DNA of 64,000 bases, from positions 3,527-67,526 of the forward strand of contig JBJFFD010000022.1 in the NCBI GenBank assembly GCA_051891335.1, read 5' to 3'. Shown here one piece after another: positions 4,393 through 59,869 of the stretch. The notes beneath the pieces are model-generated. The model was given only the letters and a program-made list of their open reading frames with translations. It made no database searches and was not told where the DNA came from. Origin of the DNA: Candidatus Scatovivens sp. Lineage in GTDB: Bacteria > Bacillota > Clostridia > TANB77 > CAG-508. Position numbers and translations under genes: made by a program. Positions within the stretch are counted from its first letter, which is position 1. Each line of letters opens with the position of its first letter.

Positions 4393-4417
4393 GGGTGATT
4401 TTAATCACCTACAGAAC
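4393..4417 (-). repeat. REP-like element GGGTGATT-TTAATCACC, then TACAGA
   Basis: Hairpin plus the CCTACA tail of the family. Confidence 0.45.
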
Positions 4418-4520
4418 AAAAGGGGTATGTTTAAAATTCTTTAACTTTTTAACAGACTCACATGCCCCGTCTTTGTTCGCACGCGAAAAATTGCTATGCA
4501 ATTTTTCTGTGGAATGTATT

Positions 4521-4558
4521 TATATTATAGGAAGTTAGGAGAACCTTCCTATAATATA
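4521..4558. repeat. Perfect 14-bp-arm palindrome TATATTATAGGAAG-N10-CTTCCTATAATATA (ATAGGAAGTT motif family)
   Basis: Read directly. The same ATAGGAAGTT/AACTTCCTAT arms recur at 20983-21012 and about 44160-44195. Confidence 0.5.
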
Positions 4559-4588
4559 AAAAATCTGGTTTAAAAACCAGATTTTTTG
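4558..4588 (-). terminator. Rho-independent terminator of topA (bidirectional hairpin AAAAATCTGGTTT-AAAA-ACCAGATTTTTT)
   Basis: Perfect stem flanked by A-runs and T-runs, directly 3' of the topA stop at 4590. Confidence 0.75.
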
Positions 4589-4589
4589 T

Positions 4590-6677
4590 TTATTTTTTTG
4601 CTTTTTTCTTTTTGGTTGTTTTTCTTGTGGTAGCTTTTTTCTTTGTTTCTTTTTCTATTTCATTTTTCTCATCTTCATTTTCTATATATTTTTCACCTTT
4701 TTTAGGCTTGTTCCAAGAAATATAATCACAACCATTATTAGGATTATTTTCACATATATAGTAATTTCTTCTTTTCTTTGTTTTTCGTACTTGAACAGTT
4801 CCTCCGCATTTTGGACATGGTACATCAATAGTTTCTACTATTGGTTTAGCATTTTGACATTCAGGATATCCTGGGCATGCCAAAAACTTTCCATACCTTC
4901 CATATTTAATTACCATCATTCTGCCACATTTTTCACATGGTACATCTGATACTTCATATTCAAGTTTTACATGTTCTAATTCTTTTTCAACTTTTTCTAC
5001 ATTTTCAGAAAATGGCCCATAAAAATCCTTAATTATTTTTTTCCAATTTTCTTTTCCTTCAGCGACTTTATCAAATTCTTCTTCAATTTGTGCGGTAAAC
5101 TCATAATTTATTATGTTTTCAAAATTTTCTACTAATAATTTATTAACAACTTTTCCTAATTCTGTTGGTATTAATTGCTTTTGAACTTTTTCAATATATC
5201 TCCTTGTTAATATTGTAGTTATTGTTGGTGCGTAAGTACTAGGTCTTCCTATTCCTTTTTCTTCTAGAGTTTTTACTAAACTTGCTTCTGTATATCTTGG
5301 AGGTGGTTCAGTAAAACTCTGTTTTGATTCTAAATTCCTATAAATTAATTCTTCTTTTTCTTTTAATTCTGGAATCTTTTCAAATTCTTCATTTTCTTCC
5401 GAATAATTATAAACACTTAAAAATCCTTTAAATTTCAAATTTTGCCCATTTGCTCTAAATTCATATTCATTTCCAACCACACTTACTGTTTTTGTATCAT
5501 ATACTGCTGAAGCCATTTGACTTGCTAAAAATCTATTATATATTAATTTATATAATTTATATTGGTCTTGAGTTAAACTATCCTTTATTTGTTCTGGTTC
5601 TAATTCTATATAACTTGGTCTTATAGCTTCATGGGCATCTTGTGCTTCTGATTTTGATTTATAGAATCTATTTTCATAATAATTAGCCCCATACTTTTCT
5701 GTTATTTTTTGTTTTGCAGCAATTCTTGCTTCCTCTGAAATTCTAACAGAGTCTGTTCTCATATATGTTATAAGACCTGTTTCACCTTTTCCAGGTAATT
5801 TAACTCCTTCATAAAGTCCTTGTGCTACTTGCATAGTTTTCTTAATTGCGAAGTTTAATTTTCTAGAAGCATCTTGCTGAAGTGTACTTGTCGTAAATGG
5901 TGGAGCTGGATTTTTCTTTCTTTCTCCTATTTTTATTTCATTTACAAAATATTTAGCTTTTTCTAGTTTTTTTAATATTTCATCTACTTCTTCTTTTGAG
6001 TGTATTTCTTGTTTTTTTCCGTCTTTTCCTATAAATTTGCATATAAAATCTGTTTTTGTTTTTTGGTCACATACAGTTAAATTTATGTTCCAATATTCTT
6101 CTGGTTTAAAACTTTCTATTTCTTCTTCTCTATCAACAATTAATTTTACTGCAACTGATTGAACTCTACCAGCAGATAACCCTCTTTTTACTTTTTTCCA
6201 TAAAAGTGGGCTCATTTTATATCCTACTATTCTGTCTAGTACTCTCCTTGCTTGTTGTGCATCTGTTAAATTTAAATCTATTGTTCTAGGATTATCTATA
6301 CCATTTTTCACTGCATTTTTAGTTATTTCATTAAATGTTACCCTACACATACTTTTAGGATCTAAGTTCAATATGTATGCAAGATGCCATGCAATTGCTT
6401 CTCCCTCGCGGTCAGGGTCAGTTGCTAGATAAATTTTTTTTGCTTCTTTCGCATCTTTTTTCAATGAATTAATTAATTTTGCTTTTCCTCTTATGTTTAT
6501 ATATTCTGGTTCAAAATTATTTTCAATATCTATACCCATTTTTGACTTAGGTAAATCTCTTATATGCCCCATTGAAGCAACAACTTTGCTTTTTCCTCCC
6601 AAAAACTTTTTTATTGTATTAGCTTTTGCTGGAGATTCCACTATCACTAATTTATCTATCATTATACTTTCTCCCAT
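4590..6677 (-). CDS. topA: DNA topoisomerase I
   Basis: TOPRIM N-terminus (IVESPAKANTIKKFLG...). Active-site region (RTDS). C-terminal Cys4 zinc ribbons (CEKCGRMM...CPGYPEC, CPKCGG...C). Confidence 0.95.
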   Translation of the reverse strand: MGESIMIDKLVIVESPAKANTIKKFLGGKSKVVASMGHIRDLPKSKMGIDIENNFEPEYINIRGKAKLINSLKKDAKEAKKIYLATDPDREGEAIAWHLAYILNLDPKSMCRVTFNEITKNAVKNGIDNPRTIDLNLTDAQQARRVLDRIVGYKMSPLLWKKVKRGLSAGRVQSVAVKLIVDREEEIESFKPEEYWNINLTVCDQKTKTDFICKFIGKDGKKQEIHSKEEVDEILKKLEKAKYFVNEIKIGERKKNPAPPFTTSTLQQDASRKLNFAIKKTMQVAQGLYEGVKLPGKGETGLITYMRTDSVRISEEARIAAKQKITEKYGANYYENRFYKSKSEAQDAHEAIRPSYIELEPEQIKDSLTQDQYKLYKLIYNRFLASQMASAVYDTKTVSVVGNEYEFRANGQNLKFKGFLSVYNYSEENEEFEKIPELKEKEELIYRNLESKQSFTEPPPRYTEASLVKTLEEKGIGRPSTYAPTITTILTRRYIEKVQKQLIPTELGKVVNKLLVENFENIINYEFTAQIEEEFDKVAEGKENWKKIIKDFYGPFSENVEKVEKELEHVKLEYEVSDVPCEKCGRMMVIKYGRYGKFLACPGYPECQNAKPIVETIDVPCPKCGGTVQVRKTKKRRNYYICENNPNNGCDYISWNKPKKGEKYIENEDEKNEIEKETKKKATTRKTTKKKKAKK

Positions 6678-20317: not shown

Positions 20318-20935
20318 ATGAGTAAAAAAAATATTTTTATTTTAATTTTTTCAATACTATTTTTTTTATTTGCTTTAGCTTTTTTATTATATACTTTTTC
20401 TATTAATGATACTAATAAAAATAATACTGTTAATTATTCAAATGGAATATTAGATAATTCTGTTAGTGAAACTACTAACAATGCTAATACGGCTAATAGT
20501 TCTGATACTTCTGATACTTCTATTTCAGAGGATTTACCTGATATTGAATATGAATCTTTAATAGATTTTACTTTTTATAATAAAAACAATGAAGAATTTA
20601 ATCTTTCTAGATATAAAGATAAACCTATTGCAATCCTATTTTCTGATTTTTCAGGTAGTTACGAAATATGTGTAGAATATTTGAGTCTATTAAATTCGTA
20701 TTACGAAAAATATAAATCTAATATTCAATTTCTTTGTATAGATAAGTCTAATTTTATTGATTCAGATTCAAATATCGAGATTTATAAAGATAAAGATGGT
20801 ATAGAGAAATATTCAATTGATAAGTTACCTTCTTTAATTTTTATTAATAAAGAAGGAGAAATAATAAATCAAGTTACTTCAATCACTCTTGACAGTCTGG
20901 AAGCAAATCTTGATTTAATAACAGGAAATTTTTAA
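20318..20935 (+). CDS. Hypothetical membrane-anchored protein, possibly thioredoxin-like fold, with an Asn/Ser/Thr-rich linker
   Basis: N-terminal TM (IFILIFSILFFLFALAFLLY) and a low-complexity NNTVNYSNG...SSDTSDTS linker. No CxxC motif. Confidence 0.45.
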   Translation: MSKKNIFILIFSILFFLFALAFLLYTFSINDTNKNNTVNYSNGILDNSVSETTNNANTANSSDTSDTSISEDLPDIEYESLIDFTFYNKNNEEFNLSRYKDKPIAILFSDFSGSYEICVEYLSLLNSYYEKYKSNIQFLCIDKSNFIDSDSNIEIYKDKDGIEKYSIDKLPSLIFINKEGEIINQVTSITLDSLEANLDLITGNF

Positions 20936-20941
20936 AATTCT

Positions 20942-20980
20942 CAAAAAAAGAAGATATAAAAAACTTTACATCTTCTTTTT
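20942..20980 (+). terminator. Rho-independent terminator after the 20318..20935 gene
   Basis: Hairpin GAAGAT...ATCTTC followed by TTTTTT. Confidence 0.6.
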
Positions 20981-21140
20981 TATATAATAGGGAAGTTCTC
21001 CTAACCTCCTATTATATAACAGCTTCGCCAATTTCGTACACAAATTTTATTGCATAAAATTTGGCATGCTAAGAACAAATACGTGGACTTCAAAAATATT
21101 TAAATGATATAAAATATTTTTAAAGTCCACTTTTGTTCTT
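20981..21140 (+). ncRNA. Conserved structured non-coding element, copy A: 5' ATAGGAAGTT palindrome, conserved core, 3' terminator hairpin GTGGACTT...AAGTCCAC plus U-run. Candidate sRNA or 3'UTR element
   Basis: About 85% identical to the reverse complement of 44035-44230. The terminator stem carries compensatory changes (GGAC/GTCC versus GTAC/GTAC). Confidence 0.4.
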
Positions 21141-22061
21141 TTATGCATTTTCTGTTAATATTGGTATTACTTGTTTTTTACGAGATACTATACCCTCTAG
21201 CAATGCTGTATTATTTTCTAGTTTAACATCGTAAGATCTTTCTACTAAATCCGTTGCTTTTCCTAATGCAATTACTTGTGAATTGCTGTTTAGTATGTCT
21301 GTTATTAATAGAATAAATAAATCTAACTTATTTTCATCTATCGTTTTTTGCATACCTTTTTCTAAATCTTCTTTTAATTTCATTACATCTTCTATACTAG
21401 CTGTATTTACTTGATTTATTATTACATTTAAATCTTTTATAGTTGTTTTTTTAGCATCCATTGTTAATATTTCATCTATTGAAAAATCGCTTATATCTGT
21501 TCCTGCTTTTAACATTTCTAATCCATATTCTTCAATATTTATTTCTGCTATTTTAGCTAGTTCTTCCGCAGCTTTTTTATCTTCATCTGTACATGTTGGT
21601 GATTTAAATAATAATGTATCTGATATTATTGCTGAAAGCATTAATACTGCTATTGTCTTTCCTATTTCAACTCCATTTTCTTTATATAATTTATATAATA
21701 CTGTTTCAGTGCAACCAACAGGTTCTGCCCTATAAAACAAAGGTGATGGTGTATTTAATGCTGTTCTATGATGATCAACAACTTTTATAATATTCATATT
21801 TATTAAATTATCTATTGATTCTTCGTAATTAGCGTGATCTACTAATATTACATTTGAACTACTTTCAAGACTTTCTATTAATTCTGGTGGTTCTATTCCT
21901 AAATAATTTAATACAAATTCTGTTTCTTTATTTATTTTTCCTAGCCTACAAGCTTTAGCTTCTCTTCCCAATGCGTTTTCAAAATTTGCCATTACTAAAC
22001 TTGATGTTATTGAATCTGTGTCTGGATTTTTATGTCCAAAAATATATTCTATTTTTTCCAT
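21141..22061 (-). CDS. ppaC: Manganese-dependent inorganic pyrophosphatase (family II, DHH)
   Basis: MEKIEYIFGHKNPDTDSI... DHH motif. VDHH, AEPVGCTETVLYKLYKENGV and the C-terminal DHHA2 region. Start moved to the ATG at 22061, which has RBS GGAGAG. Confidence 0.9.
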   Translation of the reverse strand: MEKIEYIFGHKNPDTDSITSSLVMANFENALGREAKACRLGKINKETEFVLNYLGIEPPELIESLESSSNVILVDHANYEESIDNLINMNIIKVVDHHRTALNTPSPLFYRAEPVGCTETVLYKLYKENGVEIGKTIAVLMLSAIISDTLLFKSPTCTDEDKKAAEELAKIAEINIEEYGLEMLKAGTDISDFSIDEILTMDAKKTTIKDLNVIINQVNTASIEDVMKLKEDLEKGMQKTIDENKLDLFILLITDILNSNSQVIALGKATDLVERSYDVKLENNTALLEGIVSRKKQVIPILTENA

Positions 22062-22194
22062 TTTGTAATCTCTCCATTTCTTTTTTATTTTCTTTACTAT
22101 CTTATAATAAAAAAGTTTAAAAATCAATATTTTTAAACTTTTTTGTCTAATATTTAGATTTTTTGTTCTTTACTAGTTGATATGAAGATTGCCA

Positions 22195-39121: not shown

Positions 39122-39411
39122 TTATCTTATTGAATCCATATACCATTTTTTTTGCGCTAATTTTTCTTGTACTCCATTTAATGCTTCTCCAAATCTTTGA
39201 AAATGGACTATTTCTCTTTGTCTTAAATATTTTAATACATCTACTACATCTGCATCTTCTGCACATAAATTAATTAATTTTTCATATGTTGCTCTTGCTT
39301 TTTGCTCTGCAGCCAAATCCTCTGTTAAATCCGCTACCGGATCGCCTTTTACCGCTATTGTTGTTGCTGTCCATGGTAATCCTGCTGCTGCTTGAGGATA
39401 TACTCCTAATC
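39122..39411 (-). pseudogene. cotJC: cotJC (Mn-catalase family spore coat protein), 3' half, separated from its 5' half by an inserted element
   Basis: The frame is open from the junction: IDNKHTPHGLGVYPQAAAGLPWTATTIAVKGDPVADLTEDLAAEQKARATYEKL...REIVHFQRFGEAL matches the C-terminal half of CotJC/Mn-catalase. No start codon of its own. Terminator hairpin at 39092-39120. Confidence 0.8.
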
Positions 39412-39609
39412 CATGTGGTGTGTGTTTGTTATCTATCCTAAATAAGAAAATTTATAATAACTACTTATTTTGTACAAGAAATTCTGCGCCTACATTTTTT
39501 GTAGGCATTGTTTATTACCTTACAACTTTATTCTGATTATAATCGATTGTTCAGAAAAAACAAATTTAATATGAAGAAGAATTAAATAATTATGAAATAG
39601 AATTATAAA

Positions 39610-39645
39610 AGACAAAATGGAGAAATTATGCTCTCCATTTTGCCT
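39610..39645 (-). terminator. Terminator hairpin AAAATGGAGA-N9-CTCCATTTTG downstream of the element membrane-protein gene
   Basis: 10-bp stem plus a T-run in minus-strand sense. Confidence 0.55.
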
Positions 39646-39700
39646 TGATTTTTTAGTCTTTGTTTTGCATTTCGTTCATTTTATTTCTAAATTCTTCAAG

Positions 39701-59312: not shown

Positions 59313-59389
59313 GGCGGGGTAGCTCAGTTGGCTAGAGCACTTGGTTCATACCCAAGGTGTCGAGAGTTCGAATCTCCCTCCCGCTACCA
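59313..59389 (+). tRNA. tRNA-Met (anticodon CAT, elongator-type; the Ile2/lysidine alternative is not excluded)
   Basis: Cloverleaf: acceptor GGCGGGG/TCCCGCT. D-arm TAGCTCAGTTGGCTAGAGCA. Anticodon arm CTTGG-TTCATAC-CCAAG. T-arm GTTCGAATC. Encoded CCA. Terminator hairpin AAAACCGTA...TACGGTTTT at 59391-59423. Confidence 0.9.
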
Positions 59390-59795
59390 TCAAAACCGTA
59401 TTTTATACGGTTTTATTTTTTTATAAATTTTTATTCTCTTCCATAAATTACTAATTTTGTTATTATAATACAATAAAAGGCTATTAATTTCAACGTATTA
59501 TCTGTCTTGCTTATTATAATCTATATAAGGGAAATTAATTTAAATCTCTGTAGGGGCGGAACCCCGTGTCCGCCCGTAAAAAAATACATTGTTTGCGGGT
59601 CGACAGAGGCGTCGACCCCTACAACATTTTCAATAAATTTTATTCCTACAAATTACTAATTATTGTTCTGATTATGCCATAAATGACAGATAATTTTGAA
59701 AAAATTTTTGGTTTTGAATATGATGAATATTTATTTACAAATAAAATTATTATCGAAGAAATAACAAGAATAATTATTTTATATAAATAAATTAA
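59380..59795 (+). repeat. Direct repeat unit copy 1: tRNA-Met 3' end, terminator, an inverted REP doublet, and a remnant of a small ORF
   Basis: Near-identical to 61255-61870, with 1 SNP across the roughly 290-bp core. Copy 2 has an extra roughly 200 bp (N-terminal part of ORF 61599..61865). The tRNA-proximal 40 bp is more diverged. Confidence 0.8.
59548..59629. repeat. Inverted REP doublet: GTAGGGGCGGA-N8-TCCGCCC in plus orientation, and GGGTCGAC-N6-GTCGACCCCTACAACATTTT in minus orientation
   Basis: Two family members in opposite orientation about 20 bp apart. Duplicated again at about 61423-61505. Confidence 0.55.
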
Positions 59796-59869
59796 TTTAA
59801 AAAAAAGCAAAGTTTTTGTATTAGTAGCACAAAAACTTTTTATTTAACTTTTTTTACAAAATCTATTAA

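Follow-up and report, generated by a model that had tools for sequence, protein, structure and literature searches.

A dispersed three-hairpin repeat behind transcription terminators of uncultured gut Clostridia, probably a non-autonomous mobile family

REP and BIME palindromic units, and palindrome-associated elements derived from IS200/IS605, are hairpin repeats without terminal inverted repeats or target-site duplications; they are mosaic in build, insert in a defined orientation beside a short conserved target, and are found at gene 3' ends. A REP is a palindrome of 20–40 nt with a 5' tag of the GTAG type, and the RAYT gene is flanked by REPs, while IS200/IS605-derived elements carry similar subterminal hairpins at both ends and insert on the 3' side of a short target of fixed sequence. 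Class C group II introns insert just downstream of the stem-loops of intrinsic terminators, in the orientation of the terminator; they are at least 600 nt long, contain ribozyme domains that are conserved and, in most cases, encode a reverse transcriptase. The pneumococcal SPRITE repeats, described in 2011, are AT-rich, contain an 18-bp duplex with a long U-rich tract, and are enriched at gene 3' ends; they show only A/T runs at their ends and no demonstrable target duplication, and their co-option as terminators has been suggested (PMC3049150). For the BOX elements of S. pneumoniae (boxA-boxB-boxC), terminal inverted repeats and target duplications have been reported, and co-transcription with neighbouring genes is possible, so that these elements may affect expression (PMC3049150). 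Correia elements and the classical bacterial MITEs are IS-derived and have both terminal inverted repeats and target-site duplications; MITEs can also contain boxes that resemble promoters, and the RNA hairpins they can form influence genes next to them (reviewed in PMC10969869).

Here, we analysed a stretch of 64,000 nt (the window) from a 'Candidatus Scatovivens sp.' MAG. The initial annotation had described two inverted copies, A and B, of a structured non-coding element, and had offered them as a candidate sRNA family, as a 3'UTR or 5' leader module, or as a pair that could mediate inversion of the DNA between them. Both copies are present, and a third, copy C, brings the number in the window to three. 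Copy C was found at 4409–4554 (−; 69 bits, E=7e-12) by R1, a covariance model from copies A and B alone; the scores listed below are those of R2, the family covariance model. We consider it probable that A, B and C are SPRITE/BOX-like non-autonomous interspersed repeats that land at terminators and are able to serve as an extra terminator. The units and the features next to them are as follows.

20976–21139 (+): copy A, whole unit, including the abutting T-run 20976–20981; R2, 122 bits, E=6.6e-24
20982–21017 (+): hairpin H1 of copy A, arms ATATAATAGG and CCTATTATAT around GAAGTTCTCCTAACCT (family alignment and consensus fold)
20996–21019 (+): signature TTCTCCTAACCTCCTATTATATAA in H1 of copy A
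21027–21066 (+): hairpin H2 of copy A, CAAATTTTAT-TGC-ATAAAATTTG, with an alternative outer pairing GCCAATTT/AAATTTGGC (from folds)
21074–21139 (+): hairpin H3 of copy A, long and terminator-like, with a T-rich end, AACAAA-GTGGACTT...AAGTCCAC-TTTGTT
20943–20981 (+): terminator of the 205-aa ORF upstream of copy A, GAAGAT...ATCTTC followed by T6
44055–44214 (−): copy B, whole unit, including the T-run 44209–44214; R2, 90 bits, E=4.4e-17
44174–44208, 44128–44166 and 44057–44120 (−): hairpins H1 (degenerate), H2 and H3 of copy B
44209–44241 (−): terminator of the 410-aa ORF upstream of copy B, AGCTACAGA...TCTGTGGCT followed by T6
44000–44054 (−): block directly upstream of cotJA, GAACAAGTTAT...GTACATAATATGTATAAGGAGGG, about 50 nt, kept in the element-free relative L024
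4413–4563 (−): copy C, whole unit; R2, 139 bits, E=1.3e-27
4558–4563, 4522–4557, about 4481–4513 and 4415–4477 (−): T-run, H1, H2 and H3 of copy C

The conserved units of A and B differ slightly from the bounds first drawn for them (20981–21140 and 44035–44230). Aligned with MAFFT, these two copies shared 83% identity over 261 columns with flanks and 89% over the 159-column core, and a repeat finder returned the inverted arms 20994–21064/44129–44199 (86%) and 21074–21137/44057–44120 (88%). The overall identity of 86–89% is far above chance, and the 31-nt core GCTTCGCCAATTTNNTACACAAATTTTATTG occurred exactly twice in the window and in none of 100 dinucleotide shuffles; the relatedness of the two segments, as originally asserted, is real. 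The paired substitution that had been noted in the terminator stem is also a true double change, GTGGACTT/AAGTCCAC in A against GTGTACTT/AAGTACAC in B, in which G-C is replaced by U-A at alignment columns 102/143; two more changes in the inner stem of H3 turn A-U into G-U. Both strands of A and of B folded far below shuffle energy (z from −3.5 to −7.2). A simple terminator scan did not call H3, because its loop and stem are beyond the limits of the scan. A coding function was rejected, as the ORFs over the copies are not conserved and a 1-nt indel between A and B breaks the frame.

Copy C followed the same plan of three hairpins as A and B despite differing stem sequences: its H2 is GAAAAATTGC-ata-GCAATTTTTC against CAAATTTTAT-tgc-ATAAAATTTG, and its H3 inner stem is GGGGCATGT/ACATACCCC against GTGGACTT/AAGTCCAC. 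The 5' modules of C and A are almost identical and contain the palindrome TATTATAGGAAG-gttctcctaa-CTTCCTATAATA. The common plan thus consists of a T-run, H1, H2 and a long terminator-like H3 (AACAAAG...CTTTTGTTCT). H1 is a palindrome of 14–17 bp with the loop TTCTCCNAA, of conserved form TTCTCC(G/T/A)AA, and H2 is a short hairpin of variable sequence. H3 has a conserved foot, AACAAAG/CTTTTGTT, and is made up of 13 consensus pairs and an AT-rich distal stem, followed by the end TTTTGTTCT. H3 resembles an intrinsic terminator that is over-long and partly bidirectional, with termination a predicted activity.

To define the family, we matched the 24-nt H1 signature TTCTCCNAACNTCCTATNATATAA in metagenome contigs. 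It was found in 119 contig stretches, mostly from the human gut, with a median GC content of 27.7%, and it had no match among viral contigs. Most of these stretches showed the full H1-H2-H3 plan, the canonical unit being (T)n ATATTATAGGAAAG TTCTCCGAA CTTCCTATAATATAA, then ..GCACAGAAATTTGC-ttt-GCAAATTTCGCGCAC, then GAACAAAGACGCGGACTT...GTCCGCTTTTGTTCT. Units were 149–164 nt long, and the full-length sequences comprised 51 distinct ones in several subfamilies; one 153-nt sequence was unchanged at six loci with differing flanks, including separate contigs of sample Ga0209694. A search by R2 over 784 kb of signature-bearing loci returned the seeded copies and a few extra. Further copies, which the check proposed at the outset called for, do exist. 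The set also included solo H1 modules, units with internal deletions and pairs arranged head to tail, and in L084, L122 and L065 a unit is followed at once by the 5' arm of another, as would be predicted were the terminator-like end of a unit itself a target. Proteins on the family contigs are named 'MAG: ... [Clostridia bacterium]'. Repeats of 150 nt can give rise to chimeric joins in metagenome assemblies, and any argument from a single flank is weakened accordingly.

The family appears to be previously unrecorded in the collections searched. At the gathering level of Rfam 15, the window and nine loci gave only tRNA (window) and the SAM riboswitch (loci), and in E-value mode all matches of A, B and a canonical copy were far below gathering scores. 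BLAST of copy A and of a canonical copy returned no plasmid or phage match, and the core patterns of A and B found nothing in viral and metagenome scans. The signature was absent from the literature searched, which included the first 200 of the 408 supplements of a human-microbiome structured-RNA survey (PMC8040213). A scan of genome contigs with the A/B-specific pattern GCTTCGCCAATTTNNTACAC gave 13 matches in unrelated phyla, which were set aside as chance; one of them, L014, was unrelated by eye.

Next, we assessed whether the three hairpins are maintained by base pairing, using a structure alignment of 25 copies with less than 97% mutual identity, including A, B and C. Standard pairs were formed in 95.2% of cells, and changes on both sides were present in 13 of the 39 pairs (48 cells). 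None of 500 shuffles reached any of five pairing measures, and pairing fell to 40–46% when the 3' partners were slid by 1–3 columns. Double changes were distributed over H2 (7 of 13 pairs), H3 (five) and H1 (one, at columns 12/39, with U-A in 16 copies and A-U in eight). These results show that the hairpins are kept by compensatory change throughout the family. The selection on RNA structure claimed earlier therefore stands as far as pairing is concerned. RNA as the selected molecule is not established, because folding energy slightly favoured the antisense over the sense strand in 37 of 46 copies, and because the H1 loop flips as DNA palindromes do. The flip was observed in L067 2683–2833 and L142 215–364, in which the loop (TTCTCCNAA) is inverted relative to H2-H3 with the arms unchanged; the H1 palindrome can flip, which argues for DNA-level behaviour of H1.

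Within the window, each copy lies behind a gene that already has a terminator of its own. Copy A is downstream of the 205-aa ORF 20318–20935 (+), after that ORF's hairpin and T6, and starts at the end of the T-run of this terminator. The same arrangement holds for copy B, which starts at the end of the T-run of the hairpin-T6 terminator of the 410-aa ORF 44249–45481 (−), and copy C is placed behind the terminator of topA (4590–6677, −; Pfam assignment). On its other side, H3 of copy A comes within 1–2 nt of the stop codon of ppaC, a convergent gene (21141–22127, −), and is the only hairpin after that stop codon in the window; by this placement, copy A is predicted to terminate ppaC as well, and probably does so from its other side. 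Copy B is followed by the block 44000–44054 and, 55 nt away and in the same orientation, by the start of cotJA (43775–43999, −), upstream of which it had been correctly placed. The 410-aa protein matched no Pfam family. Gut metagenomes encode more than 100 homologues of it, about 320–370 aa in length, several of which adjoin cotJA in close relatives, while more distant ones do not.

To learn how general this position is, we surveyed 68 sites with distinct left flanks and took the nearest upstream ORF within 600 nt. This ORF had the orientation of the unit in 51 of 59 instances (binomial p=9e-9), and its stop codon preceded the unit by a median of 52 nt. A run of at least four T abutted the unit at 61 of the 68 sites, and the 44 nt upstream folded to −8 kcal/mol or lower at 48 of them. 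The initial observation that each copy follows a co-oriented ORF and its own terminator is thus a family-wide rule; a 3'UTR module is excluded for the window, each copy being behind a separate terminator. Where the orientation of the upstream gene and that of the locus majority were discordant, at four sites only, the unit followed the gene at three, including copy A, a number too small to separate the two.

At the left junctions, T occupied each of the last six positions in 64–82 of 83 flanks, and to the right of ...CTTTTGTTCT the sequence was random and AT-rich. The junction tables gave no terminal inverted repeats, as the left end, (T)nATATTATAGG, has no complementarity to the right end, CTTTTGTTCT, and no target-site duplication, as no flank was repeated in 50 right and 83 left junctions. 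No autonomous partner was found within 4 kb downstream of solo H1 modules, and no transposase, including the HUH/Y1 domain, among the window ORFs scanned.

A separate group of loci (L056, L062, L078, L081, L115, L125 and L128; for example, L056 1520–1655) has the same H1, a different H2 and a short H3. Here 30 nt separate the unit from a downstream deoD-like (purine nucleoside phosphorylase-like) gene, and an extended −10 (TGTTATAAT) is located just upstream of the unit. Because this promoter-like sequence precedes the entire unit, the repeat of this group appears to be part of the 5' leader of the deoD-like gene.

Comparison with relatives revealed sites at which the element is lacking. In L024, whose CotJA is 86% identical, the site of copy B is empty, with the upstream gene and terminator as in the window: the locus reads terminator, then TTTTTTTC-ATATAAAG-GAACAAGTTAT...GTACATATTATGTACAAGGAGGGATAAGATATG, and the T-run of the terminator joins the cotJA-proximal block directly. 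In the window, 154 nt of element stand between the T-run and ATATAAT-GAACAAGTTAT, and both flanks agree with those of L024. The seeming ATATATAA repeat in this filled and empty pair is the 5' arm of the unit, not a duplication. In L015, whose 410-aa protein is 89% identical, an H1 module is present at the same locus, followed by the end of the contig; the terminator of the 410-aa ORF is present in both L015 and L024. As for copy A, no element is found downstream of ppaC in L020 (PpaC 92% identical) or L023 (80%), in which ordinary separate or shared terminators lie between ppaC and the convergent small ORF. A weak R2 match at L023 9799–9961 was discarded as an unrelated GC-rich palindrome in the amidase-ppaC spacer; this nested palindrome, GTAGGGGCGATTTTAAATCGCCC...GGCCGACAGAGGCGTCGGCCCCTAC, could be another type of repeat.

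The window contains further features of note. Its cotJC is split over 39125–43551: by tblastn, amino acids 1–104 of the intact CotJC of L032 (197 aa) match 43551–43240 (−) and amino acids 93–196 match 39436–39125 (−). The insert of about 3.8 kb encodes a large serine recombinase (40791–42371, +), a ParE toxin (42861–43220, +) with two small ORFs upstream of it, and a 209-aa ORF without Pfam match (39701–40330, −). The insert resembles a minimal intervening element of the skin/gin type, placed in a sporulation gene (compare PMC5595907). Truncated cotJC calls (65–68 aa), some at contig ends, were obtained in L024 (2053–2259), L026 (3147–3344) and L027 (1861–2058), and cotJC may be a recurrent insertion target in the clade, at a position other than that of the window. 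A tRNA-Met gene (59313–59389) has its 3' end and about 400 nt downstream of it duplicated at 61257–61881 with 85–98% identity, and the duplicates flank an AAA_14/DUF4143 ATPase gene (59870–61063, −); in this region, 59313–61881, a small insertion or duplication may have occurred at the 3' end of the tRNA. A tandem array at 62284–63290, with seven copies of a 108-nt period that are 63–81% identical, is located inside the ORF 61923–63428 (−) and represents the 36-aa Sel1/TPR repeats of the encoded protein, which are ordinary.

Taken together, insertion polymorphism and dispersal were observed: the 64 kb contain three copies, 119 external stretches match, near-identical units have differing surroundings, and sites are empty in L024, L020 and L023. 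These observations favour a mobile interspersed repeat; mobility is here inferred from distribution, not from mechanism. The unit would then be, or recently have been, a non-autonomous mobile element that relies on an enzyme encoded elsewhere for its copying, and it would either target the hairpin and T-tract of terminators or survive only there. The AAA that follows H1 is able to pair with three Ts of the T-run; some of the T-run may for this reason belong to the unit, and the apparent targeting of terminators could partly be a boundary artefact. The position behind terminators could also arise through selection against insertions at other places. The hairpins may be what the mobilising machinery recognises, and they would also fold in read-through RNA. 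The effect on the host would likely be modest, that of a second terminator or insulator behind genes, and at some loci the element may be carried within 5' leaders.

Among the alternatives, that of proliferated sRNA genes deserves the closest attention, even if we find it rather doubtful. It would take TATAAT or TATTAT in the 3' arm of H1 as a −10 element and the H2 and H3 hairpins as an RNA of about 105 nt, trans-acting or protein-binding; start and end, equally doubtful, would fall a few bases past this −10 and at the U-rich tail of H3. Such a hexamer is indeed present in the H1 3' arm of almost every copy, the end of the unit coincides exactly with the end of a terminated transcript, H2 and H3 covary, and G-U pairs of the sense strand are kept at columns 61/96 and 110/162. 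Some downstream genes also begin 15–30 nt past the unit, so transcription must cross the unit or start in it. However, the sigma-70 consensus scan gave no acceptable −35, and no sense −35/−10 pair, on A, B, C or a canonical copy. The best-conserved part of the unit, the H1 palindrome with its loop, would fall upstream of the transcript, and a promoter leaves its symmetry unexplained. Conserved columns are located in H1, the stems and the foot of H3, whereas the loops of H2 and H3 and the linkers vary among subfamilies, and no conserved single-stranded seed is present. The slightly better folding of the antisense strand and the flipped H1 loops of L067 and L142 likewise count against an sRNA, and the extended −10 upstream of the unit in the L056 group makes that unit a part of a leader rather than a gene of its own. 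The sRNA label is probably a misattribution.

A bolder version of the mobile repeat, which we regard as unlikely, would be a terminator-targeting element of a new type, without inverted ends, duplication or enzyme, which would be placed exactly where the T-tract ends and be oriented like the terminator. Two routes can be imagined: the stem-loop of the terminator might be recognised, in single-stranded DNA, by an as yet undescribed enzyme, or the element might be joined to the 3' end of the terminated transcript in an RNA-mediated reaction. If the terminator-targeting reading were true, the element would be a self-spreading 'plug-in' terminator or insulator cassette, common in abundant uncultured gut Clostridia.

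The proposal that the cotJ operon is regulated in cis by copy B, as a 5' leader or attenuator, with copy A the displaced duplicate of copy B, is very improbable. It draws on the position of B, 55 nt upstream of cotJA and co-oriented, and on the terminator-like hairpin at its end. However, L024 keeps cotJA and the proximal block of about 50 nt and lacks the element, which places copy B upstream of this block and not within a cotJA leader module, as had been suggested. From its conservation and a CATA-type −10, the block 44000–44054, located downstream of copy B, is the probable cotJ promoter with its ribosome-binding site. L026 and L032 have a different cotJA spacer of about 180 nt, in which R2 found no match at E≤1, although the MAFFT alignment looked suggestive. 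The unit is, moreover, found behind topA, beside ppaC and by unrelated genes in metagenomes.

We give even less credence to the proposed use of the A/B pair as a substrate for inversion of the intervening 23-kb segment (21–44 kb), for which two inverted copies, 86–89% identical and 23 kb apart, might seem suited. The order and orientation of the genes at the A junction (pth, RNase G, MiaB-like, amidase, ppaC, the opposite-strand small ORF, mraZ and rsmH) are the same in the element-free L023, and the junction of the 410-aa homologue with cotJABC is conserved in L024, L026 and L032; gene order is thus unaltered in relatives without A or B. GC skew is uniformly negative across the segment, the sole exception being the 40–42 kb bin inside the cotJC insertion, to which the nearby serine recombinase also belongs. 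At 13% divergence, the longest exact matches between A and B are about 16 nt, poor for homologous recombination. Finally, chance similarity of AT-rich intergenic DNA, conceivable in a palindrome-rich region of about 25% GC, is ruled out by the absence of the 31-nt core from shuffles, by covariance-model E-values of 1e-17 to 1e-27 and by the 119 exact external matches of the 24-nt signature.

The tempting readings, an sRNA pair private to this DNA, a leader of cotJ or a switch by inversion, give way to a testable one, the mobile interspersed repeat. This reading describes a previously unrecorded family, without match in Rfam 15, the plasmid and phage collections or the literature searched, that is spread through prevalent, uncultured, low-GC Clostridia of the human and animal gut. 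Repeats of this kind interrupt the assembly of metagenomes, pass for sRNAs or terminators during annotation, and are capable of rewiring transcription where genes end. The one feature with the potential to reveal a new mechanism is the tight coupling to the T-tract, from which the usual hallmarks of transposition are missing.

Compared with known systems, the site behind a terminator and the orientation of that terminator are shared with class C group II introns; unlike these, the unit has no ribozyme domains or reverse transcriptase, and no Rfam intron model matched. With REP/BIME and IS200/IS605 derivatives it shares a hairpin-based, mosaic build without terminal inverted repeats or target-site duplications, orientation-specific insertion beside a target-like flank, here the T-run, and location at gene 3' ends. 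In contrast to REPs, H1 has no GTAG-type tag, and no HUH/Y1 transposase was encoded among the window ORFs scanned; in contrast to IS200/IS605 elements, H1 and H3 are unrelated in sequence, and no Y1 (HUH) transposase or TnpA was found nearby. Copy A also differs from the REP/BIME and IS200/IS605 families in being oriented with its upstream gene, against the local majority of gene direction.

Like Correia elements and MITEs, the unit is multi-copy, intergenic and non-coding and, at under 200 bp, stays within the size limit of about 300–500 bp for a classical MITE. As judged from the junctions, it lacks the terminal inverted repeats and target-site duplications of a classical MITE, and no parent IS with matching ends was found in the window or in the 4 kb past solo H1 modules. 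Modular build, subfamilies, partial and solo modules and a strong fold if transcribed are in common with BOX elements, from which the family differs by the lack of terminal inverted repeats and target duplications. SPRITE, compared by description only, is the closest described element: both are small AT-rich non-coding repeats of Firmicutes, with a duplex longer than that of normal terminators followed by a U-rich tract, near gene 3' ends and without target duplication. The present unit has two extra conserved hairpins, the fixed-loop H1 and H2; it abuts the T-run of a prior terminator and is co-oriented with the upstream gene, whereas SPRITE lies mainly between convergent genes; and it occurs in uncultured Clostridia, whereas SPRITE occurs in streptococci. 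We therefore file it among the small structured interspersed repeats of Firmicutes, as a new family.
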